From Betaproteobacteria bacterium (lineage in GTDB: Bacteria; Pseudomonadota; Gammaproteobacteria; Burkholderiales; SG8-39), in assembly GCA_004297625.1 (NCBI GenBank), contig SCTY01000004.1, positions 2,697-66,696 of the forward strand: a stretch of 64,000 nt of DNA. Direction: 5' to 3'. Below, in pieces: positions 2,452 to 28,484 of this stretch. The translations under genes and the position numbers were made by a program. The notes under the pieces are model-generated. The model saw nothing but the letters and a program-made list of their open reading frames with translations, had not been told where the DNA came from and ran no database searches. Every line of letters begins with the position of its first letter. The stretch's first letter is position 1.

Positions 2452-3868
2452 GGTTCACGAACGCGCAGTCGTCCGGCGGCCAGACCGCAGCTTCATTGCA
2501 GTCGGCCTGCAGTCCTTTTGCAGTCGATCCGCCGCCGTTGCGCCAACTTCCATCGATTTGCTTTTCGATCCGATCCATCGCGTCTTGCTGCTCTTCGTTT
2601 GCTGCCTCGATGTGGCTGGTGTGTGCTGCCTGTCCGGTTAGTGTTTCTGTCCGTCCCGGCCGCTAGGCGTGCCGGGATCTACGAGGGACGCGGGACACCA
2701 CTCCCGCTTTGTGCAGTCTTCCTTTTGCTGCTCGCCGCGGCTGCACCCGCTCTTGGCTTCGATGGCGTTTCCTGTGGGAACTCGACTCATCGAGTTGAGC
2801 CATAACCCAAGGCTCAGGGGTGCGCGGGTTGCGCGCGGGTCAAACGACGCCCGTTGAGGAACGGGCAGGGGGACGAACCGCATTGCGCGGTTGTACGGGG
2901 TGATGCGCCAGGGAGCTCATCACTTGGTTGCGGCACTGGCAATATCGGCTCGAAACCCGCACCGTTGCGTGCCTGTGCGCAGCGTCACTACCCGCTCGCG
3001 GCTAGTGACGCTGCCATTGGCGCACACGAATTGCCGCAGGAATGCGGACATGGGTTGGCGCAGCGCAGGGATCGCGTCGGCCGAGGCCGGCGAGATGTGC
3101 TGGCACGAGTCCGCCGGCGAGCCTTACGCGTGGGCGCCTGAATGGCGCATCAGACGTTCAGCCGAGGCAGGGGTACGGACTATGGACGGCGGGTAAACCG
3201 TCTTCGACGGCCACGCGCGGGAAGCAGCAAATCGCTATGTCGATGCGATGCGATGTACTGCGGCCGGGACGCGATCTCCTACGTCATGCGCAACACGGCG
3301 CGCCCCGAGGGGCGGATGCTTACGTGTATCTCCGGGCCTTGCGGCCACTGGCTTTCAGGAGATCAGCCAGGTTTTGGCGCTCTCGCGAGCAAAGGGCGAT
3401 GCGTAACGGGCATCAAGCGGGCTGACACAGCCAACGAAATTCAATACCGTCCGGCGCAGTCCACTGACATATTCTATCGATCGCTTGCTCATCGAGATGG
3501 CAGTTCAACGAGGCACCTCGCAGATGCCCCTGTGACCGTGGAATTGAATCGAAAGTTCCCGCGCGCTCGGTTGCCGGGTGCGTGGCCAAAAACTGTTAGC
3601 ACTGCTGACAGTTGGCACACTCACAAAAGCTCGGCAGATCAGAAAGGTGATTTGCGTCTCGTCTGCGTCTTGTCCCGAGAGAATACGGTAGCAACTACCG
3701 GTTACGCCCGGTCAAGAAGAGTCGCCCTGCGGGCTGTGCGTGCCCGGTGTGCAAGTCTGGAAACGTCGGTACGAGAGGGCATCTACATTTCAAGTCCGTC
3801 GCGCCCCCCCTGCGTCGAATAGGTCGAATGACGGCTGCGCGATCGCACGCGGGCTGGCGGGTAGAACG

Positions 3869-3957
3869 CTGGCGGCGCGCTCTACAGTTGCGTGCCGAGC
3901 CGGGTAAGCCAGTCCGGCGTGACATCCAGTATCCATGCCTCGATTCGTTTGTTCGCG
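3869..3957. repeat. direct repeat copy A (about 88 bp, about 5 mismatches) of the ccdA 3' end plus downstream flank
   Basis: ctggcggcgcgctctacagttgcgtgccgagccgggtaagccagtccggcgtgacatccagtatccatgcctcgattcgtttgttcgc aligns by eye with 9353..9440. Confidence 0.85.
3882..3957 (-). pseudogene. 3'-terminal fragment of a ccdA paralogue (last ~22 codons plus stop)
   Basis: Minus-strand translation gives ..KRIEAWILDVTPDWLTRLGTQL*, against ..DRRIEAWILDVAPDWLTRLGTQL* at the end of the intact gene 9366..10094. Homology does not continue upstream. Confidence 0.8.
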
Positions 3958-4330
3958 CGTTCCGCGGACGCAAATCGAACCCGCGGCCCACCCAGGGGTA
4001 CACGATATCGCGTGCTTCGCCGTTCTTCGCGCGCAGCGCGTCTATCCCGGCAAGAATCGGACGGTAACGCTGGTACTGCTCGTGCTTGCCGAGGAACGCG
4101 AGTACCGGAACGCTCAACGCGTCGAGTTCCGTCGCCGGACCGGACTCACGCCTTCGACTTGTCGCAGCGAGTTCGTAAGCCGAGCGAGTGCGGCGCGTGG
4201 ATGACCTCTTGTGACCCGACTGCTCGACTGCCCACCGAAATTGGGTCAGTCCAATAGCGACGTAAGCCGCGGTCATATCTTCGCCATCAGGCGCGTGAGG
4301 GACGAGATGATCGCTATCTCCTGCGAAGCG

Positions 4331-5656
4331 TCACGATGACGCCCGGTGAAGCGATTCGATAAGTCTGGCCAGATGCGTTTCGTTCGTGCTCGGGGAGAGC
4401 AATACGGAGCGGAGGATCAGTTGCTCTCGCCACCGGGACAGACTGACCCAAGGCGCACCGTACGCTCCCAGCGTCTGATGCGCCAGTCGCATCGCATTTT
4501 CATCGTTGTCGCGGTATCGAAAGCACAACAAATTGAGGTCGGGAACATGCGTGGGCTCCAGAAACCGGTCCGACGAGAGCATTCTCCAGAAATCGCCTGC
4601 CAGGTCGATCGTGCGATCGACCTGGTCGCCCACGGCGCGCGCGCCAACGTAGCGCAGGACGGCCCAAAGCGTCACCGCGTCGGCGCGCCTCGATCCCTGC
4701 AGGCCCCAACGACCGCGGTGTGCTTCACCGGTCGCGGAGTACGGCAGCTCGACGCTCAGCTCGCGATCGAACCGATCGCGGTCCTTCACCCATACGATGG
4801 ACGAAACGCGCGGCACGTACAGCCACTTTTGCGGGCCGACCGCGACGCTGTCAGCCGAATCGAGTCCGCGCAGCAGCTCGCGATGCCGATGCGAGAAGGC
4901 GAGCGCGCCCCCGTGGATCGCATCGACGTGCAGCCATGCGTCATGTGCCCTGCTGATCTCGGCCAACCCCTGGATGTCCTCAACCGCGCCGTGAACCGTG
5001 GAACCGAGGATGCCGACGACGACCTTCCGCCGCGCGCCAGACGCGCGAAGCGCCGTGCGCAGGCTGGACAGGTCGGCACGTCCCAGAGCGTCGCCCGAAA
5101 CGACATGCACCTGACTGGCAGCAATACCGAGCACAGCCGCCGATTTTCTGATGGATACATGCGCGCACTCGGGCAGAAACAGCGCGCACTGCGCTCGCTT
5201 GTCCACGTCCCCAAACCCACCTACCGCTGCGAACAGCGCAGTGAGGTTGGCAATCGACCCGCCACTGGCAAACGTTCCCGCCCATTCCGCCGACAACCCG
5301 AGGCGTGCGCCGATATCGCCGATCACCATCTCCTCGACGCGGCTGGCGAAGGGGGCAAGCTCGCGAAACAGCAGGTTGTTGTTGACGGCGGAGACCAGCG
5401 CGTCGGTGAAAGCCGCGGCGGGGTGCGGCGCGGTATCCATATGTCCCATCATGCCGGGGGACGCCAGCCCCGCGCTGCCGGTCAGGAAACAGCGAAATAC
5501 TTCCGTCAGTCCTTCGATTCCCTCACCAGCGTCGGGAATCGCACCTATATCCGGCTGCGCCGCAGGACTGAACTGCGTCGCCTCATAGGCTCGCCGAATC
5601 ATTGCTGTCGCAATCTCGCCGGCAGTCTCGAACGGAAAATGGCGAAACGCCTCCAC
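4331..5656 (-). CDS. PLP-dependent (group II-like) amino-acid decarboxylase family protein
   Basis: 441-aa ORF with HVDAIHGG and a VGPQKWLYVP segment (putative PLP lysine), plus a GGSIANLTAL segment typical of fold-type I decarboxylases. Confidence 0.8.
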   Translation of the reverse strand: MEAFRHFPFETAGEIATAMIRRAYEATQFSPAAQPDIGAIPDAGEGIEGLTEVFRCFLTGSAGLASPGMMGHMDTAPHPAAAFTDALVSAVNNNLLFRELAPFASRVEEMVIGDIGARLGLSAEWAGTFASGGSIANLTALFAAVGGFGDVDKRAQCALFLPECAHVSIRKSAAVLGIAASQVHVVSGDALGRADLSSLRTALRASGARRKVVVGILGSTVHGAVEDIQGLAEISRAHDAWLHVDAIHGGALAFSHRHRELLRGLDSADSVAVGPQKWLYVPRVSSIVWVKDRDRFDRELSVELPYSATGEAHRGRWGLQGSRRADAVTLWAVLRYVGARAVGDQVDRTIDLAGDFWRMLSSDRFLEPTHVPDLNLLCFRYRDNDENAMRLAHQTLGAYGAPWVSLSRWREQLILRSVLLSPSTNETHLARLIESLHRASS

Positions 5657-8713: not shown

Positions 8714-9352
8714 TCCTTCTCCAGCAGGTTCATCAGACTCGACACCGGGCGTTGTCCTACCACCACATGTCCTTGTCCTGCGGGTACTGGCTCGCAACCC
8801 AAGTCTCATGCATCACCGCCGCAGGCGCGGTCAACAAGAATGCACAAAAGCGCAAGCGCTCGCATCGAACCTCCACGATTTGGACTGCGAGACATTTCCG
8901 GAGTGCGGCAATCATATCCTGGCGAAGAAGCTCGCAGGACCGCCGAGGCGGCGTGGAGCGCCCGGCTGAACGGCTACACAAGTATTCCTACTCCGCCCGG
9001 CACGCCTGCAATATCGGGTACTCGCTTATGCCAGACCGTCTGTCTTCAGGTTTTCCGCTCTGTAGCAAAGCACTCCGGCTTAACCAAGGCAGCCGAGGCG
9101 TCGGGCCCGAGTCCCGATTCGCTCAGCATCGTGATGGAACCAAGCAGTCCCCAAGCGCTGAATGGGCTGGCCGCAATCGGTCTCCGGTTCGCGATCATGC
9201 CAGGCGTCGCCGTGCCACAGGAAACTTGCCGCGGGCACCTCGTGGGTGTGCGCCTCTCGCTACGGTTGATGCGGAATTTCTCGGCGCTCTATCCGAAAGA
9301 CGAGGTCCGCTCGCAGCTCATCGTTACCTTCCTGCATTTCGCGACGACGCGG

Positions 9353-9440
9353 CTGGCGGCGCGATCTACAGTTGCGTGCCGAGCCGGGTAAGCCAGTCCG
9401 GCGCGACATCCAGTATCCATGCCTCGATTCGTCTGTCCGC
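9353..9440. repeat. direct repeat copy B (3' end of intact ccdA plus flank)
   Basis: Partner of 3869..3957; see that entry. Confidence 0.85.
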
Positions 9441-10094
9441 ACCGGTCAGGACGAACGCGCCGAGCATCAGCATCACGCCGCCGAGGACCTTCTTGCCGGT
9501 GCGCCCCGCGGCAAGAAGGCGGCCACGCAACCGGATCGTTACCTGCCGCGAAAGCGCACCGAGAGCGACGAGCGGCAACCCGGCGCCCAGCCCGAAAAGG
9601 GCCATCACCAGCGCCACCTGGGTAAGCTGCTCGCCCTGGCTCGCGAGCGTGATGGCCGCCCCGAGCGTCGGCCCCACGCATGGGCTCCATACGACGCCAA
9701 GCAGCAATCCCAGCACGAACTGTCCGGACAGGCCATCGGCTGAAATTCCGGACAGCATGCGCTGACCGGCGCTCGCCAAGCCGGAAGTGGCGAGCGCGAA
9801 GCGGTCCTGCAACAGCGTCGAAAGCAATAGAACGCCGAATCCGAGGAGCACTACCGCAGCGGCGGTGCGAAAGGCCTCCGGCTCGAGACCGATACTCGCG
9901 CCAAGGCTGGCGAGCAGTGCGCCGACGAGAGTGAAGGAAAGGGCGAGTCCCGCCGCGAGCGCCCAGGCGCCCAGCCGGTGCGCGGCCAGCGCCGAGCCGA
10001 TCAGGATCGGCACCAGCGGCAGCACGCAGGGCGACAGCGTCGAAAGCCCTCCGGCGGCGAAGGCGATGCCGTAGGTGCCGAAACCGAAATCCAT
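9366..10094 (-). CDS. ccdA: cytochrome c biogenesis/thiol:disulfide electron transfer membrane protein CcdA (DsbD-family core)
   Basis: 242-aa polytopic protein. It has LSTLSPCVLPLVPILIG and WSPCVGPTLG, the two conserved membrane Cys motifs. Confidence 0.88.
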   Translation of the reverse strand: MDFGFGTYGIAFAAGGLSTLSPCVLPLVPILIGSALAAHRLGAWALAAGLALSFTLVGALLASLGASIGLEPEAFRTAAAVVLLGFGVLLLSTLLQDRFALATSGLASAGQRMLSGISADGLSGQFVLGLLLGVVWSPCVGPTLGAAITLASQGEQLTQVALVMALFGLGAGLPLVALGALSRQVTIRLRGRLLAAGRTGKKVLGGVMLMLGAFVLTGADRRIEAWILDVAPDWLTRLGTQL

Positions 10095-10107
10095 CGTTCG
10101 CCGATAC

Positions 10108-10503
10108 TCAGAGCGCCTTGGCGAGGTCCGCCGCGATTGCGTCCTTATTCGTCTGCGCGATAGAGCGGGCCACCTCTTTCGTGCCCTTGAACACGATCAG
10201 CGTGCTCTGGGAGCGCACCCCGAAGCGCTTGAGTACCGCCTTCTGAAGATCATAGTCGACGATGAAAACTGCGAACCCGGCAAACTCCTTGCGACCGAGG
10301 AGCCCTCCGAGCACTTCCTCCTGAACGCGGCAGACGGGACACCAGTCGGCGTGGACGGAGACCAGCACCGGCTTGCCGGCCCGTTGGGCGGCTTCGAATT
10401 CGGCCGCATCGAACGGACGCTCCGCAGCCCGGAGTGCGCCTGAAAGGAAAAGCCCGGCAACCAGCAACAGGGTCGAACACCAAATAGACCGCGTCGCGCG
10501 CAT
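10108..10503 (-). CDS. secreted thioredoxin-family protein (CPVC active site)
   Basis: Signal peptide MRATRSIWCSTLLLVAGLFLSGALRA, then VSVHADWCPVCRVQ. Confidence 0.85.
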   Translation of the reverse strand: MRATRSIWCSTLLLVAGLFLSGALRAAERPFDAAEFEAAQRAGKPVLVSVHADWCPVCRVQEEVLGGLLGRKEFAGFAVFIVDYDLQKAVLKRFGVRSQSTLIVFKGTKEVARSIAQTNKDAIAADLAKAL

Positions 10504-10528
10504 GTCCAGAGTCCTTCTTTCGTCGTCG

Positions 10529-10984
10529 CTATGGCCGGATATAGTTCCAGCCTTGGCGCTGCCGCTCCATCAACTGCACCACGCCGGCCTTGACGTGGCC
10601 GATTCCGGCGATCAGGTCCGCGTTGGTGAGTTTCATGTTGTGCATCGTGTTGTCGCAGGCAACGACCGCAACGTTGTCGTCGAGCGCGCCGTTGACGCGG
10701 TCAACCACCTTGGACTCGGCCCTCAGCATGTTAAGGCCCGGGCCGTAAGCGACGATCTCGATCTCGACATTTTCCTTGCCGAGATCCGCCTGGACGTTTT
10801 TCGCGTTATTGAGCGCCAGATTCCACTTCACCGGATCGTTATCGCTCACCTGGAAGATGACTTTGTACTTCGCATTGGCTTGCGGGGCGCTCTTCACGGT
10901 TGCTGCCTGCTGCGCAAGAGCGTTGGGAATGGCCGTGAAGATGGTGCCGGCGGCGAACAGTGCGGCGATTACTGCCTGTCTCAT
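10529..10984 (-). CDS. secreted DsrE/DsrF-like (COG1416-type) protein
   Basis: Met at 10984 preceded by GGAGGA. Signal peptide MRQAVIAALFAAGTIFTAIPNALAQQ. Core segments: KVIFQVSDND..., EIEIVAYGPGLNML, VAVVACDNTMHNM, GWNYIRP. The long upstream ORF extension is rejected. Confidence 0.7.
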   Translation of the reverse strand: MRQAVIAALFAAGTIFTAIPNALAQQAATVKSAPQANAKYKVIFQVSDNDPVKWNLALNNAKNVQADLGKENVEIEIVAYGPGLNMLRAESKVVDRVNGALDDNVAVVACDNTMHNMKLTNADLIAGIGHVKAGVVQLMERQRQGWNYIRP

Positions 10985-11030
10985 ATTTCCTCCTCGATGA
11001 ATCGGGTTGCGGGCTTGCTCCGGACGTATT

Positions 11031-11056
11031 GACGCCGCAAGGCCCGGGAATATTCC
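11031..11056 (-). promoter_or_regulatory. candidate ECF-type promoter (GGAATA-N16-CGTC) for the dsrE-like/trx/ccdA operon
   Basis: The minus strand reads GGAATAttcccgggccttgcggCGTCaata, about 47 nt upstream of the 10984 start. Its geometry is identical to the plus-strand partner at 11079..11104. Confidence 0.55.
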
Positions 11057-11078
11057 ATCACCGGGCCCGGTCCGGGGT

Positions 11079-11104
11079 GGAATAAACTGGACGGGTACTT
11101 CGTC
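11079..11104 (+). promoter_or_regulatory. candidate autoregulated ECF-type promoter (GGAATA-N16-CGTC)
   Basis: GGAATAaactggacgggtacttCGTCtaa ends 24 nt upstream of the sigma-factor ATG (11128). Confidence 0.55.
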
Positions 11105-11127
11105 TAATCCCGGTGCAAGGAGTTCGA

Positions 11128-11670
11128 ATGCTGTTTGGCATTCAAGCCGCAGTGCGGCGGGAGGTTGCGCGGTCGCGCCAGGCGCTCTATCGGCTTGCGT
11201 ACGCCTGGTGCCACGACGCATCGCTCGCGGACGACTTGGCGCAGCAGGCCATCGAAAAGGCGCTGCGCAGTGCGGCGCAGGTGCGCGATCAGGCGCGTGT
11301 GCGAGGCTGGCTCTGCCGCATCCTCGCCAATTGCCTGCGCGACCATTTCCGCGCCACGCGCGAGCACGAGGACGTGGACCGTCTTGTGGACACGATTGCG
11401 GCAAGCGGCCTGACCCCGGAAGAGGCGCATGCCGGCGCGCAGCTTAGCGCGCGGGTGCGCGATGCAGTCGCCCGGTTGCCGCTGGGGCAACGTCAGGTCG
11501 TGACGCTGGTCGATCTCGAGGGCTGCAGCTATGCCGAAGTCGGCGAAGCGCTGGAGATTCCGATCGGCACAGTGATGAGTCGGTTATGCCGCGCTCGGCA
11601 GTCACTGCGCGAGCAGCTGCTTGCCGTGATGGCGGATGAGCGGGAAGCGAAGCTTCGGAGCGTGAAATGA
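11128..11670 (+). CDS. ECF (sigma-70 group IV) RNA polymerase sigma factor
   Basis: Region 2 (LYRLAYAWCHDASLADDLAQQAIEKAL) and region 4 (LPLGQRQVVTLVDLEGCSYAEVGEALEIPIGTVMSRLCRARQSL). I chose ATG 11128 because AAGGAG lies 5 nt upstream. The ORF track starts at GTG 11113. Confidence 0.9.
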   Translation: MLFGIQAAVRREVARSRQALYRLAYAWCHDASLADDLAQQAIEKALRSAAQVRDQARVRGWLCRILANCLRDHFRATREHEDVDRLVDTIAASGLTPEEAHAGAQLSARVRDAVARLPLGQRQVVTLVDLEGCSYAEVGEALEIPIGTVMSRLCRARQSLREQLLAVMADEREAKLRSVK

Positions 11671-12380
11671 GCGAAGAACACAGGGTTTCTGCCGAGATGC
11701 AGAGTGCGTTTGTCGATGGTCAGCTCGACGCCGCCGAATGGGAGCGCGTTGCCGGGCGGATCGAAGGCGATGCGCGGCTGCGGGAAGATTTGTGCGCGCT
11801 GCGCACCGTCAAGGACATGGTTCAGCGTGCGTATGCGGAGCCGCCCGCGTGGCGGGACCGCGCCGGACGCGAACCCCTGCGTCGCTGGATACCGCTCGCC
11901 GCGGCGAGCGCGATGTTCTCGGTCGCGGGCTGGTTCGGACACGCCTGGTGGAGCGATGAAGCGCAGGGGGACCCCGTTGCCGGCTACGCGCTGCGGGGTG
12001 ACTGGCGATCGCTCGATCGCAATCACGTACTGGTACACGTCAGCTCGGGGCGGCCCGAGGCGCTTGGGACGGCGCTCGACGAGGTGGAGGACGTGTTGCG
12101 TTCTGCGCGCACTGCGCACCGGAGCATCGAGGTCGAGATCGTCGCCAACAGCACGGGCCTGGATCTGCTGCACGCCGGAAACACGCCGCACGCAACGCGC
12201 GTCGCGGCGATGCGCGCCGAATTTCCCAACCTCAAATTGGTCGCCTGCGGCCAGACGCTGCAGCGGCTGCGTGAGAACGGAATCTCAGTCGAGTTGCTGC
12301 CCGGCACCGAAGTCGCGCCTTCGGCCCTCGATCAGGTGGTCAAGCGATTGCAGATCGGCTGGGTCTACGTTCGGGCCTGA
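11667..12380 (+). CDS. anti-sigma factor: RseA-like N-terminus, one TM helix, periplasmic DsrE-like domain
   Basis: 4-nt overlap with the sigma gene. The N-terminus has MQSAFVDGQLDAAEWERV. The TM helix is WIPLAAASAMFSVAGWFGHAWW. The C-terminal ~140 aa align with the 10529 product (EVEIVANSTGLDLL, LKLVACGQTLQRL, GWVYVRA). Confidence 0.75.
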   Translation: MSEEHRVSAEMQSAFVDGQLDAAEWERVAGRIEGDARLREDLCALRTVKDMVQRAYAEPPAWRDRAGREPLRRWIPLAAASAMFSVAGWFGHAWWSDEAQGDPVAGYALRGDWRSLDRNHVLVHVSSGRPEALGTALDEVEDVLRSARTAHRSIEVEIVANSTGLDLLHAGNTPHATRVAAMRAEFPNLKLVACGQTLQRLRENGISVELLPGTEVAPSALDQVVKRLQIGWVYVRA

Positions 12381-12464
12381 TGACAGGAAAACCGACGGAT
12401 CAAGGCGGTGTCATTACCGATTTCGTCTCGCCGAAAGAGCGATTTCCTCCTTTTGGAGATTGAC

Positions 12465-13016
12465 ATGAGATCCGTCGCGCTATTCAGTACTTCCCTATTG
12501 TTCCTGTTCAGTGGTCTGGCGTCGGCTAATCCTCCCTCGCCCTACGTCGGGCAGGAGACGCGCGCTATCAAAGCGTTGTCGGCGCAGGAAGTTCAGGATT
12601 ACCTCGAGGGCAAGGGCATGGGTCTCGCCAAGGCCGCCGAACTCAATCGCTACCCCGGTCCGGCGCATGCTCTGGAGCTTGCCGTGCCGCTCGATCTAAC
12701 GATAGAACAGAAGGCACGCACTCAGGAGCTGTTCAAACGGATGCAGGAAAAGGCGATAACTCTGGGCCGCCTGCTGGTCGACGAGGAAGTGAATTTGGAC
12801 AGGCTGTTTGCTACCCGAACCGTCACGCCCGAAACGCTGCGAGCAGCGCTCGAACGCATCGGCAAGGTTCAAAGTCAAGTGCGCGAGGCGCACCTGGAAG
12901 CGCATCTGGCCCAGACCGAGATACTTTCCCCGGCGCAGACTGCGAAATACGTCGAATTGCGTGGCTACGGCGCGCATCCGACCGGAAATGGCGAGCGGCA
13001 ACATGGCAGGCACTGA
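12465..13016 (+). CDS. periplasmic Spy/CpxP/heavy-metal-sensor-like protein (LTXXQ-type repeats)
   Basis: Met at 12465 after GGAG. Signal peptide MRSVALFSTSLLFLFSGLASA. Helical LxxxQ motifs: LSAQEVQDY, LTIEQKARTQELF, LSPAQTAKY. Confidence 0.6.
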   Translation: MRSVALFSTSLLFLFSGLASANPPSPYVGQETRAIKALSAQEVQDYLEGKGMGLAKAAELNRYPGPAHALELAVPLDLTIEQKARTQELFKRMQEKAITLGRLLVDEEVNLDRLFATRTVTPETLRAALERIGKVQSQVREAHLEAHLAQTEILSPAQTAKYVELRGYGAHPTGNGERQHGRH

Positions 13017-13362
13017 CGGTCTGATCGCACACCGGGTCGCGTCCCGGTGCGTGGTCTATGAGCGATCGGGGGCCACGTGATTTCCGGCAGATGACTTCAT
13101 GCTCAGACCGCGATTGCCGGCAGCCCGACGCGGCTACCGTCGCTCATTCCGGCGAGCGTTTCCAGGCTGATAGAGCGGCTCTGGTCTGCCCGCCCGTCGT
13201 TTTGCTCGGACTGGCAAAACTGGTCTGGGTGATCGTGGGGTGGCCGCTGGGCGGGGCCGTGGACTTCGCCATGCGGCGGTCGCTTACCCCTCGCGCCATG
13301 GTTCAACCAACCCGTGGTCATAGACGAAGCGGCCCGCTGGTTCACTCGAGAGTCGACGCCCG

Positions 13363-14145
13363 CTACCCGTGCGGCGCGGTCGCCAGCTTCAGAAACTCGT
13401 TCAATTCCGTCGTATTCAGGTCGGACACGGCGATATACGTGAATTCGCCATCCCTGCGCGCGGCGATGTTGAATCCATTGTGCCGCGCGTCGCCGTGCGG
13501 GGCGAGCCGGCCGGCCTGCTTAGTCGGCAGCACGTAGAGATTGATCAGGTGCTCCTTGCGACGGTAGACCAGCGCGGCCACCGCCTCCTCTTCGAACACT
13601 TCGAGCCGGCCGCCCACCAGCGTGAAACCCTGCGCCGCGAAGTCCTCGACCGGCGGCGCGTATCTCAGCCGGCCGCTGAACCAGGGCTTGACAGCGTGGC
13701 TGTCGGACGACGCGACATCGACCGCGTGCGGCGACATCATCGAGCGCAGATGGGCCGAGACCAGTAGCCTTTCGCCGGCATCGCTTCTTGCAAGATTGAG
13801 CACCAACGCGGTTGCGACGACCGAGACCAGCGCCGTTGACGTCATCGCGCCCGCCAGCCGCAAGTTCCACCGGTTGCGCGATCCGGCGCGTTCGCGCCCT
13901 TCCCGCTCGAACCCGCGCTCTTGAACCGGACGCGCGGGCAGCGCACTCAGGCGGCGCGGCGCTCGGTGGCGCCGCACGCGTGCGCGCATGGCGTCGCTCA
14001 AGGCGCGCAGCACCGCATGGCGCTTCAGCAGCGACGCAGATAGCGTCGCGGTGGCGTCCACTGGCCCAAGCAAGCCGCGCCGCTCGCCATCGTCGGCTTC
14101 GCCGTCGATCAGCGCCGTCAGCAGACGTTCATCCTTTTCGTTCAT
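13363..14145 (-). CDS. transmembrane anti-sigma factor (COG5662-like)
   Basis: 17-nt overlap with the upstream ECF sigma gene. N-terminus LLTALIDGEADDGE; one central TM helix (LAGAMTSTALVSVVATALVL). The C-terminal domain resembles that of 23031..23876. Confidence 0.75.
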   Translation of the reverse strand: MNEKDERLLTALIDGEADDGERRGLLGPVDATATLSASLLKRHAVLRALSDAMRARVRRHRAPRRLSALPARPVQERGFEREGRERAGSRNRWNLRLAGAMTSTALVSVVATALVLNLARSDAGERLLVSAHLRSMMSPHAVDVASSDSHAVKPWFSGRLRYAPPVEDFAAQGFTLVGGRLEVFEEEAVAALVYRRKEHLINLYVLPTKQAGRLAPHGDARHNGFNIAARRDGEFTYIAVSDLNTTELNEFLKLATAPHG

Positions 14146-14701
14146 AGGTGTTCATTCCCTTGTCTTTCAGTGCTTGCAGCATCATTTCGCGAGCGCGCGC
14201 CAAGCGTGACATCACGGTGCCCACCGGCGCCTCGATGACGCGCGCGATTTCCTTGTACGACAGATCCTCCAGCTCGCGCAGCACCAGCGCCTCGCGGTAA
14301 TGCACCGGCAGAGCCGCAAGCGCCGCATTCAGCGCTTCGGCGTCCGACAGGCGCTCGGTCCAGCTCTCCGGGCTCTCGGCCCAGATCGATTCGTCGGCCA
14401 CGTGCTCGTGCGCTTCGAGGTCGATCGGCTCTTCGTGCTGCGCCTGGTTCTTGCGCGCCGAACGCCAGTCGAAGAACACCCGGCGCACGATACCGAGCAA
14501 CCATGGCCGGCCTTCTTTGCCGCGGAACGAGGCGAAGTAATGCCACGCCCGCGCGAGCGCTTCCTGTGCGATGTCCTGGGCGTGGGTGTCGTCGCCCGAC
14601 AGCCAGCGCGCCAGGTTGTAGGCCGCATCCAGATGGGGCATGACCAGTCTGGCGAACCGGGAGCCGGGCTGTTCCTCTTGGGTCCTACCGAATCCGAACA
14701 T
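14129..14701 (-). CDS. ECF RNA polymerase sigma factor
   Basis: LDAAYNLARWLSGDDTHAQDIAQEALARAW and LPVHYREALVLRELEDLSYKEIARVIEAPVGTVMSRLARARE. Confidence 0.9.
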   Translation of the reverse strand: MFGFGRTQEEQPGSRFARLVMPHLDAAYNLARWLSGDDTHAQDIAQEALARAWHYFASFRGKEGRPWLLGIVRRVFFDWRSARKNQAQHEEPIDLEAHEHVADESIWAESPESWTERLSDAEALNAALAALPVHYREALVLRELEDLSYKEIARVIEAPVGTVMSRLARAREMMLQALKDKGMNTYERKG

Positions 14702-14873: not shown

Positions 14874-15773
14874 ATGATCCGTTTGAAAATAGACCGCCGC
14901 AAGTTTCTTAAACTGGCCGGCGTGGGTGGCGCGGTGTTCGCGTCGGGATTACCCGGCTGGGCCGAGGCGCAGAGCATGGCCAAGGCCGACGACTTCCTGT
15001 TCGTCCAGCTATCGGACACGCATTGGGGTTTTCAGGGAGCGCCGAATCCGGACGCTGGTGGCACGTTGCGGAAGGCAGTCGCGGCCGTCAACGAGCTTTC
15101 GCCCGTGCCCGACTTCGTCATTTTTACCGGCGACCTGACCCACACGACCGACGATCCGCAAGAGCGGCGCCACCGCCTAACGCAGTTCAAGGAGATCGTC
15201 TCCGCGATCAAGGTCAAGGACGTGAAGTTCATCCCCGGAGAGCACGACGCCTCGCTCGACCGTGGCAAGGCGTACGGCGAGTTCTTCGGCCCGACCCACT
15301 ACACCTTCGATCACAAGGGCGTGCACTTCATCGTCCTCGACAATGTATCCGATCCCGCCGCCGCGCTCGGTGAAGAACAACTCACCTGGCTCAAGGCCGA
15401 TCTGGCCGGACTCGATAGAGACGCACGCATCGTCGTCTTCGCCCACCGGCCGCTGTTCGACCTGATGCCGCAGTGGGACTGGGCGACGCGCGACGGCGCC
15501 AAGGCGGTCGAGATGCTGATGCCGTTCAAGAACGCGACGGTGTTCTACGGCCACATCCACCAGGAGCACCACCACGCCACCGGGCATATTCAGCACCATG
15601 CCGCGAAATCGCTGATCTTTCCGTTGCCGGCGCCGGGCTCGCAGCCCAAGCGCGCGCCCCTGGCGTGGAATCCGGCGCAGCCCTACAGCGGCCTGGGCTT
15701 TCGCCAGGTCGGGACCAGGCCTGCGGCGTATGGGTTCGATCTGACCGAATTCCCGGTGGCGAAGAAGGCATGA
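14874..15773 (+). CDS. Tat-exported metallophosphoesterase
   Basis: Twin-arginine leader DRRKFLKLAGVGGAVFASG. Phosphoesterase motifs: QLSDTHWG, FTGDLTH, PGEHD, VFAHRP, YGHIHQEH. Confidence 0.85.
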   Translation: MIRLKIDRRKFLKLAGVGGAVFASGLPGWAEAQSMAKADDFLFVQLSDTHWGFQGAPNPDAGGTLRKAVAAVNELSPVPDFVIFTGDLTHTTDDPQERRHRLTQFKEIVSAIKVKDVKFIPGEHDASLDRGKAYGEFFGPTHYTFDHKGVHFIVLDNVSDPAAALGEEQLTWLKADLAGLDRDARIVVFAHRPLFDLMPQWDWATRDGAKAVEMLMPFKNATVFYGHIHQEHHHATGHIQHHAAKSLIFPLPAPGSQPKRAPLAWNPAQPYSGLGFRQVGTRPAAYGFDLTEFPVAKKA

Positions 15774-16165
15774 CGACCGGCGCAACCGCAGCATGGACGC
15801 GCCGGCGCTGGCTCAAGGCGGCGCTGGCAGCCGCCGCACCGGCGGCCCTGGGCCTGGGCACATATCACGCCGCGGCCGCGCCCCGCCAGGTCGTGATCAA
15901 GATGACGGTCAAGCGGTTCGAGTTTTCCAAGAAAGTGATCGTCGTCAAGAAGGGCGTGCCGGTCGTAATCGAGATCACGTCGCTCGACGTGCCGCATGGC
16001 TTTGCGGTCCCCGATTTCCACGCGCGGGCGGAGATCGTGATGCCGGGCAAGGTTGCCCAGGTGCGCTTTACCCCCGACAAGATCGGCGAGTTTCAGTATC
16101 TGTGCGATATTTTCTGTGGTGAAGGACACGAGAAATTGGAGGGCAGACTGATCGTGCGGGTTTGA
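15770..16165 (+). CDS. Tat-signal cupredoxin-fold protein with CuA-like ligand pattern
   Basis: ATGA overlap with the upstream gene. Leader WTRRRWLKAALAAAAPAALG. Ligand pattern VPHGF...YLCDIFCGEGHEKL, i.e. H-x35-C-x3-C-x3-H-x2-L. Confidence 0.75.
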   Translation: MTTGATAAWTRRRWLKAALAAAAPAALGLGTYHAAAAPRQVVIKMTVKRFEFSKKVIVVKKGVPVVIEITSLDVPHGFAVPDFHARAEIVMPGKVAQVRFTPDKIGEFQYLCDIFCGEGHEKLEGRLIVRV

Positions 16166-19318: not shown

Positions 19319-21218
<1,900 letters not shown>

Positions 21219-23034: not shown

Positions 23035-23876
23035 GGTTTGCTTTTCCCTTCGTGGACCTGTCGTTGATCGATGTCGGTTGGCGCCAGTTGGCGATAGACT
23101 TCCTGTGCCACGAGGTGCAGCACGTTCTTGCCGGCACCGGCCGAGATCGCATAACCGAAGCGCCCATCGACCCAGTAGAAGACGTTGACCGGCCCGTCCT
23201 GGGCGAAACGGAAGGCGGTATCTCCCGCGGCCGCCGCTTCCCGGGTCACGTACAGGGTCAGCCGCTGGCCGTAGGGATCGTGGTACATGAATTGCGCCAC
23301 GGGACCTTGCTCTCCGGGAAGCAGCCGTCCGCCGATCAACTCGTAGCCTACTCGGCCCAGATGCGGCGGCTTGAGCGGTGCGTTGAGCCGCTTGGATAGC
23401 CACGCCACCAGTTGATCTTCCTGATCGGCGCCAAGCTCGACCGGGCGGCGAACGTCTGGACTGTAGACAACATGTGCCACTGCGGCGCGGCGGGCAAACC
23501 CGGCCATGGACTGCATTTGATCCACGCCGACGCCTGCGAGCGGCTGCGGCGCCGGCTCATGCAACATTCCGCGCGAGAGCCAGCCTGCTGCGGCACTGAC
23601 GAAGGCAATGGACGCCGCCATGGCGAACTGACGCCAAGGGAGAACCCGCCTGCCCGGTGCGAGCGGCAGCCTGACGGGAATCGGCTCGTCCAGAACCGGA
23701 TCGAGCAGCGCACGAAGCGCTTGGTTATCCCGCACCCAGGCATCGACGCGCGCCCGCTCTTCCGGCCGGCCCGCCAGAAAAGCCTCGACCTGCGACCTGC
23801 GCGGCTCGGGCAGTTGCCCGTCCGCATAGGCATGCAGATCCGCTTCAGTCACCAGAATTTTGCCATTTTCGCTCAT
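23031..23876 (-). CDS. transmembrane anti-sigma factor (COG5662-like)
   Basis: LHAYADGQLPEPRRSQVEAFLAGRPEERARVDAW, a central TM helix (AMAASIAFVSAAAGWL), and a 4-nt overlap with the sigma gene. Confidence 0.8.
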   Translation of the reverse strand: MSENGKILVTEADLHAYADGQLPEPRRSQVEAFLAGRPEERARVDAWVRDNQALRALLDPVLDEPIPVRLPLAPGRRVLPWRQFAMAASIAFVSAAAGWLSRGMLHEPAPQPLAGVGVDQMQSMAGFARRAAVAHVVYSPDVRRPVELGADQEDQLVAWLSKRLNAPLKPPHLGRVGYELIGGRLLPGEQGPVAQFMYHDPYGQRLTLYVTREAAAAGDTAFRFAQDGPVNVFYWVDGRFGYAISAGAGKNVLHLVAQEVYRQLAPTDIDQRQVHEGKSKP

Positions 23877-24382
23877 TTCACCACCTTCAGCCTCGATACG
23901 GTCTCACTTGCCGTGAGAATCGCGCGCAGGCGCTCGCGGGCGCGAGAGAGGCGCGACATGACCGTGCCGAGCGGAATGTCGAGGGCGTTCGCGATCTGCT
24001 CATAGTTCATCCGCTCCACCGCAACCAGCAGCAGCACCGCGCGCTGATCTGCGGGCAGCCGTAACAGCGCATTGTCCAGATCGCGCACTTCCAGCATGTC
24101 GGTCTGAGTAGCGCGCACCGGGGCGTCGACCTCCTCCTCACCCATCGCCTCCACCGGGGAAGCACGCTGCGCGCGGAACCGATCGATAAACACATTGTGC
24201 AGGATGCTGAACAGCCACGCGCGCGGATCGTCGCGCCCCCGCCATAGCGCGATGCGGTTCCACGCGCGCTCCAACGTGTCCTGCACCAAGTCGTCGGCGG
24301 TATCCCTGCTGCCGGTGAGGCCGCGCGCATACCGCCGCAGGCTCGGTATGCACGCGACGATCTGGGCGGTTAGGTCCTGCAC
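23873..24382 (-). CDS. ECF RNA polymerase sigma factor (GTG start)
   Basis: LRRYARGLTGSRDTADDLVQDTLERAW and LPADQRAVLLLVAVERMNYEQIANALDIPLGTVMSRLSRARERL. Confidence 0.9.
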   Translation of the reverse strand: MQDLTAQIVACIPSLRRYARGLTGSRDTADDLVQDTLERAWNRIALWRGRDDPRAWLFSILHNVFIDRFRAQRASPVEAMGEEEVDAPVRATQTDMLEVRDLDNALLRLPADQRAVLLLVAVERMNYEQIANALDIPLGTVMSRLSRARERLRAILTASETVSRLKVVK

Positions 24383-24986: not shown

Positions 24987-25898
24987 TCAGTGCGCCGGAG
25001 CGACACCTGCCGGAAGGTTTGCGCGCATCGTCGCTGCCAGCGTGAGCAGCGTGCGCTCGGCGGAGGAGCGCTGCCGCCAGACCAAGCCGATTCGGCGCCG
25101 CGGTGCCGGGTTCCGGAACGGCCGGATCGCTACCGCGTTTCCGCGCACCCTGACCGAAGCTGCGTCCACCGCAAGCGCCGGCAGTAGTGTGCAGCCGACA
25201 CCCAGGCCGACCATCTGCCGCAGCGTTTCCAGGCCGGTCGCCTTGATCTCGTCGTTGTAGGCGGTCTTGCGTCCGCAAATATCGAGCGCCTGTTCGCGCA
25301 TGCAATGACCTTCCTCCAGCAGCAGTACACTTTGCTGCGAGAACTCACGCAGTTCGACTTGCTTGCCGCGCGCAAGCGCGTGCTCGCGCGGAAGCGCCGC
25401 GTAGAACGACTCGTCGAACAGCGGCTCGGCGCGCAGACCCTCGCGTTCCGGCGGCAACGCGATCAGCGCGGCGTCGAGCGCGCCCGACTCTAGTTTGGCG
25501 AGCAGTGCATCGGTGAACTCCTCGCGCAGCAGCAGCCTGAGCCCCGGGTGCGCGCGATGAATGGCGCCGAGGATCCGAGGCAAGAGGTAGGGTCCGACCG
25601 TGGGAATGACGCCGAGGCGCAGCGTGCGCGCCATCGGGTCCGCACCTTCGCGCGCGATCATCCGGATTCGATTCGATTCCTCGATCACGAGCCGGGCGCT
25701 TGCCACAACCCGCTCCCCAACCGGGGTAGGCGCGATGCGCCGCAGGCTGCGGTCGAACAGCGCGGCGCCGAGGTACTCCTCGAGCTTTTTCACCTGCTGG
25801 CTCAGCGTGGGCTGGCTGATGTGGCATTGCACGGCGGCGCGTTGGAAGCTGCCGGTGTCGGCCAGTGCGACGATGTAGCGCAGTTCCTGGAGGGTCAT
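24987..25898 (-). CDS. oxyR: LysR-family peroxide-sensing regulator OxyR
   Basis: MTLQELRYIVALADTGSFQRAA..., and LLLEEGHCMREQALDIC with the two redox Cys 9 residues apart. It is divergent from catalase/katG. Confidence 0.85.
   Translation of the reverse strand: MTLQELRYIVALADTGSFQRAAVQCHISQPTLSQQVKKLEEYLGAALFDRSLRRIAPTPVGERVVASARLVIEESNRIRMIAREGADPMARTLRLGVIPTVGPYLLPRILGAIHRAHPGLRLLLREEFTDALLAKLESGALDAALIALPPEREGLRAEPLFDESFYAALPREHALARGKQVELREFSQQSVLLLEEGHCMREQALDICGRKTAYNDEIKATGLETLRQMVGLGVGCTLLPALAVDAASVRVRGNAVAIRPFRNPAPRRRIGLVWRQRSSAERTLLTLAATMRANLPAGVAPAH

Positions 25899-26255: not shown

Positions 26256-28484
<2,229 letters not shown>

Follow-up and report, generated by a model that had tools for sequence, protein, structure and literature searches.

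The 64,000-nucleotide stretch of DNA analysed here, hereafter the window, belongs to a betaproteobacterium (assembly GCA_004297625.1, contig SCTY01000004.1, positions 2,697 to 66,696) and carries a regulatory module at 9366-13016. The module very probably consists of an extracytoplasmic function (ECF) sigma factor and a single-pass anti-sigma factor whose periplasmic part is a DsrE-like sensor domain. We further favour, with moderate confidence in the reading as a whole, the view that this domain senses sulfur or thiol chemistry at a single cysteine, Cys194. ECF sigma/anti-sigma pairs are a major signalling device of bacteria, and for most of their groups the cue is not established. The module was first described in an annotation made from the letters of the sequence, referred to below as the first-pass annotation.

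The sensor domain occupies residues ~119-237 of the anti-sigma factor (nt 12021-12377, plus strand), as placed by profile comparison and predicted structure. The first-pass annotation had aligned it in three short blocks with the secreted DsrE-like protein encoded divergently at 10529..10984, and the BLASTP alignment of the two proteins (28% identity over 116 aa, E=1e-9) contains all three blocks. A profile of 25 anti-sigma homologues matches MTH1491 (1l1s) with E=3.4e-11 and ST0148 (2pd2) with E=1e-4, and a joint profile of sensors and paralogues matches 1l1s over the full length with E=1.5e-26. In the AlphaFold2 (AF2) model, residues ~113-237 have a predicted local distance difference test (pLDDT) score of 77-91. 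When the modelled domain was compared with solved structures by Foldseek, it matched 1l1s (template-modelling score 0.89, root mean square deviation 1.9 A, E=3.4e-8) as well as 2pd2, 2hy5_A (DsrE of DsrEFH, E=4.7e-6) and 3mc3, all with a probability of 1.00. By profile and by predicted structure, the C-terminal domain is a COG1416/MTH1491-type member of the DsrE-like superfamily, and the placement in the DsrE/DsrF fold on which the first-pass annotation depended is borne out. The domain was also considered as a bona fide DsrE. This identification was rejected: the domain is predicted to be periplasmic, and similarity to 2hy5 at the level of HMMER is absent. No dsrF, dsrH or dsrC was present in the loci.

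Cys194 (nt 12246-12248) is invariant in 25/25 homologues and present in 149/150 representatives that are mutually at most 50% identical, and the earlier observation that a single conserved cysteine is retained extends to diverse relatives. It aligns with the cysteine of the secreted paralogues, of MTH1491 and of ST0148; across 43 sensors and 50 secreted paralogues, conservation of the aligned position reaches at least 90%. The conserved cysteine lies at a strand-helix junction, in an A-C-x-x-T/S motif at the end of a beta-strand. Seven other residues are near-invariant in the 150 representative sensors, namely His124, Asn161, Gly164, Arg178, Arg227, Trp232 and Tyr234. The A-C-x-x-T motif, two arginines and GW-x-Y are common to sensors and free paralogues, and His124 and Asn161 are specific to the sensors.

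The free paralogues examined (~50/50) carry Sec, lipoprotein or twin-arginine-like signals, so this subfamily acts outside the cytoplasm, which also speaks for a periplasmic sensor domain. Among the additional paralogues, some begin with MRRRFLA or MMLRRSFF, which are twin-arginine-like, and others have a lipobox (…GAC/QGC). The loci with such varied signals are L019, L022-L026 and L037, where they occur in third paralogues, and L016, L018, L028, L029 and L033. Judging from these N-termini, exported COG1416 proteins seem to use three export or anchoring routes.

The other parts of the 237-aa protein are those expected of an anti-sigma factor. Its gene (11667..12380, plus strand) overlaps the stop codon of the ECF sigma gene by ATGA, the 4-nt overlap already recorded in the first-pass annotation. 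Residues ~8-57 (nt 11688-11837) form a zinc-less anti-sigma domain, which is followed by an Arg-rich juxtamembrane stretch. The first ~57 residues are conserved in the alignment of the 25-member family, and their profile matches an actinobacterial zf-HC2 anti-sigma factor (hhalign probability 95%, E=3.9e-8, 38% identity). The matched protein itself scores 31.6 bits for zf-HC2, against a threshold of 22.2, and also carries MucB/RseB domains; in a genome scan, the actinobacterial proteins matching residues 9-59 sit directly 3' of an ECF gene. Direct Pfam zf-HC2 matches on members of the family are marginal (E=0.07 and 0.007). The H-x3-C-x2-C zinc motif is missing: the window protein has R, D and L at the aligned positions, no His or Cys is conserved at the zinc-ligand positions across the 25 homologues, and Cys43 of the window protein is not conserved within the family. 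By alignment, then, the N-terminus is a zf-HC2-type class I domain with lost zinc ligands. Because these ligands are replaced and Cys43 is unconserved, any redox or thiol sensing would have to sit in the periplasmic domain.

The first-pass annotation had called this N-terminus RseA-like, a description that did not survive direct comparison. RseA_N (PF03872) has no match on the window protein and only a weak one in 6/18 family N-termini (best E=0.0046, under the gathering score). With hhalign, E. coli RseA, from the rpoE-rseA region used as a control (L061), gave a probability of 0.5%, and the MucA and RseA entries of the PDB gave E=0.14-0.15.

It is important to consider whether the protein is an anti-sigma factor at all. 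Pfam and NCBIfam return no usable match on the 237-aa protein, including no significant anti-sigma match, so that profiles and structure were required, and AF2 confidence is low for residues 1-112. Both observations would fit a membrane-anchored DsrE-like enzyme or carrier that is an operon-mate of the sigma gene and nothing else. We regard this as highly improbable, given that the position directly after the ECF gene, with translational coupling, is kept in all loci and that the N-terminus matches a bona fide zf-HC2 anti-sigma factor. Anti-sigma domains that are modelled in the absence of their sigma factor usually receive low AF2 confidence.

Between the two domains, hydrophobicity places a transmembrane (TM) segment at residues ~74-95 (nt 11886-11951), in agreement with the one TM helix of the first-pass annotation. 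Every homologue has a lone hydrophobic stretch at residues ~73-95 (Kyte-Doolittle 1.2-1.9), which is Ala-rich with a near-invariant Gly88-Trp89. Throughout the family, the net charge is +3 to +5 before the segment and 0 to -3 after it. Since this pattern obeys the positive-inside rule, the anti-sigma factor is predicted from hydrophobicity and charge to be oriented N-in/C-out, a topology that is well supported but not proven.

The partner of this protein is encoded at 11113..11670 (plus strand), giving 185 aa from GTG 11113 or 180 aa from ATG 11128; the ATG, with its AAGGAG ribosome-binding site, may be the actual start. The product is an ECF (group IV) sigma factor with sigma2 and sigma4 domains only (PF04542, E=1.6e-10; PF08281, E=7e-16). 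It scores 83 bits for TIGR02937, against a cutoff of 42.9, and is 28% identical to E. coli RpoE (E=1e-16). Domain content, the coupled anti-sigma gene with its ATGA overlap and a promoter motif upstream all agree with membership of the ECF group.

This motif, GGAATA-N16-CGTC, occurs twice between the sigma gene and the divergent operon: at 11031..11056 on the minus strand, directed toward the DsrE-like gene, and at 11079..11104 on the plus strand, directed toward the sigma/anti-sigma operon. It has the typical form of ECF promoters, which carry 'GGAAC/T' at -35 and 'CGT' at -10. These two sites are the only exact matches in the whole window, in which 0.09 would be expected by chance. A k-mer count over the divergent intergenic regions found GGAATA in 33/33 on one strand and 32/33 on the other, and the full motif with fixed spacing stands once per strand in 33/33. 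In 503 kb of locus DNA, the pattern GGAAT[AG]-N16-CGTC has 75 matches, 74 of them at the divergent intergenic position. In all loci, the estimated sigma start follows the plus-strand motif at a distance of 27-46 nt, and the pair was again present in eight later loci. As the same motif stands on both strands of the divergent region, we infer that the sigma factor positively regulates its own operon and also controls the paralogue operon, including trx and ccdA in the window. A scan of 9000-13400 for sigma-70 promoters and terminators gave nothing above chance. Third copies of the motif were seen at L055 4381-4406 (minus strand), before a second DsrE-like gene (PF02635 E=1.4e-8), and at L064 6061-6086 (minus strand), before a gene for a SHOCT/PEGA-domain protein. 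The genes behind these third sites are candidate additional regulon members by position. The 165/166-aa proteins of L055 and L064, one of them behind a third site, showed no homology to each other.

In the window, the divergent operon on the minus strand is made up of three genes, which open reading frame (ORF) lists and profile scans place exactly as the first-pass annotation had them. The first encodes the secreted COG1416/DsrE-like protein (10529..10984; 151 aa) and starts at ATG 10984, a longer TTG ORF having been rejected. Its product reaches 25.6 bits for PF02635 (cutoff 22.7), has a signal peptide ending in ...ALA before QQ, and contains one cysteine, Cys110, within the A-C-x-x-T motif. 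After a gap of 25 nt follows an exported or anchored thioredoxin (10108..10503; 131 aa) with WCPVC at aa 54-58 and a hydrophobic signal or anchor at its N-terminus. It matches PF00085 with E=5.2e-9 and TIGR01068 with E=4e-11, the latter under the TIGR01068 cutoff; the closest solved structure is 5zpv (E=5e-24), and no protein named SoxS is found among its top 60 solved relatives. The last gene, 13 nt further on, encodes a CcdA-type thiol-reductant conduit (9366..10094; 242 aa) with a PF02683 DsbD_TM match (E=3.6e-14), six hydrophobic segments and two cysteines, Cys23 and Cys139, both in PC motifs.

An 89-bp direct repeat, 95.5% identical between its copies, was noticed at 3868-3956 and 9352-9440. 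Of these, 9352-9440 comprises the 3' end of ccdA together with 14 further nt, and 3868-3956, lying 5.4 kb upstream, is an orphaned fragment. The intervening DNA, which encodes a pyridoxal phosphate-dependent (PLP) decarboxylase, MOSC, ApbA and HTH-cupin proteins, may have been inserted or rearranged beside the ccdA operon.

On the other side of the module, 3' of the anti-sigma gene as the first-pass annotation had placed it, lies the gene of a secreted LTXXQ or Spy-CpxP-ZraP-type protein (12465..13016, plus strand; 183 aa). Its start is probably ATG 12465, with a GGAGA ribosome-binding site, and not GTG 12408. The protein has a signal peptide and matches LTXXQ/Metal_resist PF13801 with 30.1 bits (cutoff 29.2), and PF07813 only with E=0.016. 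The gap to the anti-sigma gene is 84 nt, in which no convincing terminator was found, and the two genes are possibly co-transcribed.

A search with the anti-sigma protein returned 222 homologues, which are full-length (235-246 aa) throughout the 120 matches listed. An exhaustive search gave 1718 matches, 438 of them at E<=1e-30, and the complete fusion is present in almost all of the best 150. In metagenomes, the fusion family amounts to at least 438 clusters at 50% identity and the free exported DsrE-like proteins to at least 4471. Of the 62 loci examined (the first 54 together with L055-L060 and L062-L066), ~45 hold full-length anti-sigma homologues, and all of these come from metagenomes or metagenome-assembled genomes (MAGs) of Beta- and Gammaproteobacteria; neither the genome-contig matches nor the named protein matches include a cultured host.

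By tblastn and hidden Markov model searches, the conserved core in these ~45 loci is formed by the secreted DsrE-like gene, the ECF sigma gene and the anti-sigma gene. In 33/40 of the first loci and in most of the later ones, the DsrE-like and sigma genes are transcribed divergently. In the gammaproteobacterial loci L036, L038 and L039, the DsrE-like gene comes directly after the anti-sigma gene. Several loci have two or three DsrE-like paralogues. For example, in L004 the interval from the first DsrE-like gene to soxY encodes, at ~4235-4725 (minus strand), a second and more divergent COG1416-type lipoprotein (…FDVCLITL…AYLRP). This paralogue was missed by tblastn at E<=1e-5 with the secreted DsrE-like protein of the window as the query, and the paralogue counts in other loci are probably underestimates. 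Conservation of the neighbourhood, on which the first-pass annotation relied, is thus real for the triad and partial for the LTXXQ gene, which is present in 14 loci when the window is counted. It does not extend to Trx/CcdA, which accompany the module only in the window and in L055, an 85%-identical relative; CcdA was found by tblastn in 0/54 of the first loci. As a general part of the circuit, Trx/CcdA was consequently rejected. Other thiol oxidoreductases occur near the module elsewhere, namely a Redoxin in L062 and DsbA with a DsbH-like thioredoxin in L063.

Sox genes adjoin the module in 5 independent beta- and gammaproteobacterial loci. In L001, soxYZAXB lies directly 3' of the anti-sigma gene, and in L004 and L056, soxYZAX or soxYZA follows directly after the DsrE-like gene or genes. 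In L038 and L039, from Piscirickettsiaceae MAGs, the genes for ECF, anti-sigma, DsrE-like protein, cytochrome c and soxB are consecutive, with soxYZA nearby. Genes aprAB and sat are near the module in L001 and L056. The flanking of the module by soxYZAX(B) in independent loci lends support to a link with sulfur chemistry. In the unrelated loci L064 (1520-3422) and L065 (5939-7816), a gene for a Porin_O_P-family (phosphate/anion-selective) outer-membrane protein is paired with a DsrE-like gene beside the sigma/anti-sigma genes, suggesting that an anionic substrate is taken up through the outer membrane. In L065, a rhodanese gene follows 2.9 kb downstream of the DsrE-like gene.

The sox genes were considered as direct targets of the sigma factor, an idea that found no support in the promoter motif. 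GGAATA-N16-CGTC is absent upstream of soxY in L001, L004 and L056, also when a relaxed pattern is used, and a hairpin stands between the DsrE-like gene and soxY in L056. Control of sox by the sigma factor, if there is any, would act through read-through or indirectly. These two observations weigh against sulfur or thiol sensing at Cys194, and so do several others. PF02635 finds no match on the window anti-sigma factor and reaches E=0.0019 on one homologue. The TM segment of the window protein is rather weakly hydrophobic, with a Kyte-Doolittle value of 1.19. No demonstrated function for any COG1416 protein was found in the literature, and the step from a DsrE-like fold to sulfur rests on superfamily membership together with gene context. 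With all loci being metagenomic, the physiology of the hosts cannot be used as support. The 64-kb window contains no sox genes, and the genes on its flanks, namely those for KatG, a MerA-like reductase and a LysR regulator, have the look of a general response to oxidative or metal stress. Finally, the commonest accessory of the module is an LTXXQ gene with a CpxRA-like two-component system: an LTXXQ protein is encoded near the module in 13 other loci (12 and L066), in most cases with genes for a response regulator and a histidine kinase after it, and the window has the LTXXQ gene alone. This accessory speaks for envelope or metal stress no less than for sulfur oxidation.

Some of this evidence fits a different cue, in which the module would respond to general periplasmic thiol-oxidative or metal stress (HOCl, other oxidants, copper, zinc or disulfide stress) with Cys194 as a redox or metal switch. 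The regulon of DsrE-like protein, Trx/CcdA, redoxins and LTXXQ chaperone would then be an envelope thiol-protection response. Such a cue would account for the recurrence of unrelated thiol-disulfide oxidoreductases (Trx/CcdA, Redoxin, DsbA/DsbH) and for the LTXXQ genes and window flanks just described. It would also agree with the copper-type P-type ATPase and cupredoxin near the module in L064 and with the ~35/45 loci that have no sox genes within 7-8 kb. However, sox genes adjoining the module in two proteobacterial classes are hard to explain for a generic sensor, and in the superfamily that contains both the sensor and the main regulon product, the characterised members are sulfur-transfer proteins. 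In addition, a single cysteine with two arginines suits an anionic sulfur adduct, whereas metal sites usually have at least two ligands, and the LTXXQ gene with its response regulator and histidine kinase may be an independent syntenic module. We therefore consider a general stress cue rather unlikely.

What we infer for sulfur or thiol sensing at Cys194, from sigma binding and topology through the ligand and the role of the cysteine to proteolytic release and feedback, can be put together as follows. The N-terminal domain of the anti-sigma factor would hold the sigma factor at the inner membrane. The signal would be a reactive sulfur species of the periplasm that modifies Cys194, the candidates being sulfane sulfur or polysulfide, a thiosulfonate derived from thiosulfate or tetrathionate, and a mixed disulfide. 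Modification could be direct or could proceed via sulfur transfer from or to the secreted paralogue. A modified or partner-free sensor would then free the sigma factor, probably by regulated proteolysis through the Ala/Gly-rich TM segment, whose Ala-rich composition and Gly88-Trp89 we take to recall RseA- and RsiW-type proteolysis substrates. Once released, the sigma factor would transcribe from the two back-to-back promoters. One would drive the sigma gene, the anti-sigma gene and probably the LTXXQ chaperone-like gene, and the other the divergent operon headed by the sensor paralogue, here together with thioredoxin and CcdA. The induced paralogue and Trx/CcdA, replaced elsewhere by SoxYZAX, redoxins or porins, would handle the sulfur species and re-reduce cysteines, and induction of the paralogue would close a negative feedback loop. 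The first-pass annotation had proposed a self-contained circuit that senses thiols, persulfides or sulfur species. Sensor/regulon paralogy, the shared motif, the triad and the sox link all speak for such a circuit, and the part of it that falls away is the general role given to Trx/CcdA.

A more specific form of this proposal would make the anti-sigma factor the receiver of a periplasmic sulfur relay. The exported paralogues would carry sulfane sulfur or thiosulfonate, possibly from or for SoxYZ, to Cys194, and S-sulfhydration would release the sigma factor. This form is tentative, and we think it on balance doubtful. If it were true, persulfidation would for the first time be known to trigger an ECF pathway, the COG1416 branch of the DsrE superfamily would gain its first function, and Sox-type sulfur oxidation in Beta- and Gammaproteobacteria would have a regulator that had so far been missing.

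The paralogy of sensor and regulon product, which is found in essentially every locus, also allows for a mechanism in which the chemistry of the cysteine is not the primary trigger. The secreted paralogue would be the ligand, forming hetero-oligomers with the sensor as the subunits of DsrE/F/H or of MTH1491 do among themselves, and the sensor would report the amount or the occupancy of free paralogue, much as RseB acts on RseA or CpxP on CpxA. MTH1491 is a homotrimer (PMC5495134), which makes co-assembly of sensor and paralogue plausible, and DsrEFH is a hetero-oligomer of paralogous subunits (2hy5). Two or three secreted paralogues are encoded in many loci, and a paralogue placed behind the sigma factor's own motif would give a natural feedback loop. 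Nevertheless, the presence of Cys194 in nearly all representatives and the sensor-specific His124 and Asn161 argue for chemistry over a pure interface. Titration by a partner is compatible with sulfur or thiol sensing at Cys194; as the explanation in its own right, it seems to us quite unlikely.

The flanks of the window contain further regulatory and redox genes. A second ECF sigma factor is encoded at 14129-14701 (minus strand; NF009185 212 bits, under cutoff), and the gene of its 260-aa anti-sigma factor, at 13363-14145 (minus strand), overlaps it. By eye, the C-terminus of this second anti-sigma factor resembles the COG5662 type tied to sulfite-responsive ECF26 sigma factors. The pair is divergent from genes for a metallophosphoesterase with a twin-arginine translocation (TAT) signal (14874-15773) and a cupredoxin-domain protein (15473-16165). 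A third ECF-like frame, at ~23876-24343 (minus strand), is 35% identical to the module sigma factor (tblastn E=3e-20) and lies near the LysR regulator (24987-25898) and KatG (26259-28484) genes. The MerA-like reductase (19617-21218) is a pyridine nucleotide-disulfide oxidoreductase of the MerA/dihydrolipoamide-dehydrogenase type. Usitatibacteraceae-type loci repeatedly encode, ~2-5 kb downstream of the module, a 743-aa DedA(VTT)-oxidoreductase fusion, and by BLASTP the reductase of the window groups with the C-terminal part of this fusion. The neighbours of the fusion in those loci are a DUF3641 radical-SAM protein, a glycosyltransferase and DUF547. At the other end, a tRNA-Ser(cga) gene (1049-1137) is immediately followed by two ORFs on the minus strand, one tyrosine-integrase-like (1142-2206) and one AlpA/excisionase-like (2083-2451). 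As far as its gene content tells, 1049-2451 is the usual signature of a tRNA-integrated genomic island, a few kilobases upstream of the module.

In summary, what is new is an ECF/anti-sigma module with a new sensor domain and with a regulon that includes a sensor paralogue, widespread in environmental Proteobacteria. The first-pass annotation knew of no characterised anti-sigma factor with a DsrE-type sensor, and none was found in the literature, nor were reports on a function of exported COG1416 proteins or of MTH1491. The main text of the ECF reclassification paper makes no mention of DsrE, sulfur or thioredoxin. Pfam and NCBIfam have no model for the fusion of an anti-sigma factor with a DsrE-like domain, and the automatic name given by the Joint Genome Institute (JGI), 'intracellular sulfur oxidation DsrE/DsrF family protein', takes account of neither the anti-sigma domain nor the predicted location.

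The input-output logic of the module is unusually testable, as it combines a recognisable fold, one invariant cysteine, a small local regulon and a target that is a paralogue of the sensor. It also reveals a large exported branch of the DsrE superfamily, the known members of which are cytoplasmic sulfur carriers. The links to sox genes, thiol-disulfide oxidoreductases and anion porins suggest a periplasmic layer of sulfur handling and sensing. This would be relevant to the thiosulfate and sulfide oxidisers of soil, aquifers and sediments, which often have neither an ArsR-type SoxR nor two-component Sox regulators. The set of sigma factor, promoter and anti-sigma factor could in addition serve as an orthogonal, possibly sulfur-responsive, expression switch.

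Among known systems, RseA/MucA with sigma-E/AlgU is the closest in general design. There, and by prediction in the module too, an ECF sigma factor is co-transcribed with a single-pass N-in/C-out anti-sigma factor, the signal arrives at the periplasmic part of that factor, the response is tuned by a soluble partner in the periplasm (RseB/MucB in the known systems), and transcription is autoregulated from promoters with a GGAAC-like -35 and a CGT-like -10 element. Release occurs by regulated intramembrane proteolysis, as it probably does in the module. The differences lie in the sensor, which in the module is a folded COG1416/DsrE-like domain with an invariant cysteine, in the N-terminus, which is not RseA_N, and in the 'partner', which is a paralogue of the sensor and a predicted member of the regulon. 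In the N-terminal ~50 residues, the module anti-sigma factor is homologous to class I zinc-binding anti-sigma (ZAS/zf-HC2) proteins, a class that includes RsrA-type domains and the actinobacterial zf-HC2 proteins with MucB/RseB domains, and like them it is encoded directly after the ECF gene. Unlike them, it lacks the H-x3-C-x2-C ligands (R..D..L).

The only characterised sulfur-linked ECF pairs that we found in the literature are ECF26 RpoE1 and RpoE4 of Sinorhizobium meliloti with their COG5662 anti-sigma factors, which are sulfite-responsive, lie beside sorT and seem to have intracellularly generated sulfite as their cue (PMC3511301). They share with the module the position of an ECF/anti-sigma pair by genes of periplasmic sulfur oxidation (sorT there, sox here) and a small local regulon that includes their own operon, whereas the COG5662 anti-sigma factor has no DsrE-like domain. 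In Arcobacter, ECF sigma factors affect sox expression (PMC3445524), also without involvement of a DsrE-like domain and in this respect unlike the module.

Characterised DsrE-family proteins are cytoplasmic sulfur-relay subunits. DsrE/TusD/DsrE3 and the structural-genomics proteins MTH1491 and ST0148 share with the sensor domain the alpha/beta fold and a conserved cysteine that ends a beta-strand. In contrast to them, the module domain is predicted to be periplasmic and is fused to an anti-sigma factor, its free paralogues are secreted, and its similarity to true DsrE falls under the level that HMMER detects.

Sox systems offer a published precedent for the role proposed for Trx/CcdA (PMC10451225 and the work cited there): SoxW, a thioredoxin of the periplasm, is reduced by SoxV, a CcdA orthologue, and the carrier cysteine of SoxY is kept in working order by SoxS, a thioredoxin-type oxidoreductase of the same compartment. 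The CcdA of the window, with two cysteines, and its exported CPVC thioredoxin resemble SoxV/SoxW(SoxS) in domain type, and they lie outside a sox cluster. The known regulators of Sox are cytoplasmic ArsR-type repressors or two-component systems (PMC10451225, PMC12936845). The ArsR-type sulfane-sulfur sensors SoxR and sHdrR (PMC10451225) answer to the sulfur loading of a cysteine, as is proposed here for the module. They are cytoplasmic repressors, whereas the module would carry out the same kind of recognition with an anti-sigma factor that spans the membrane.

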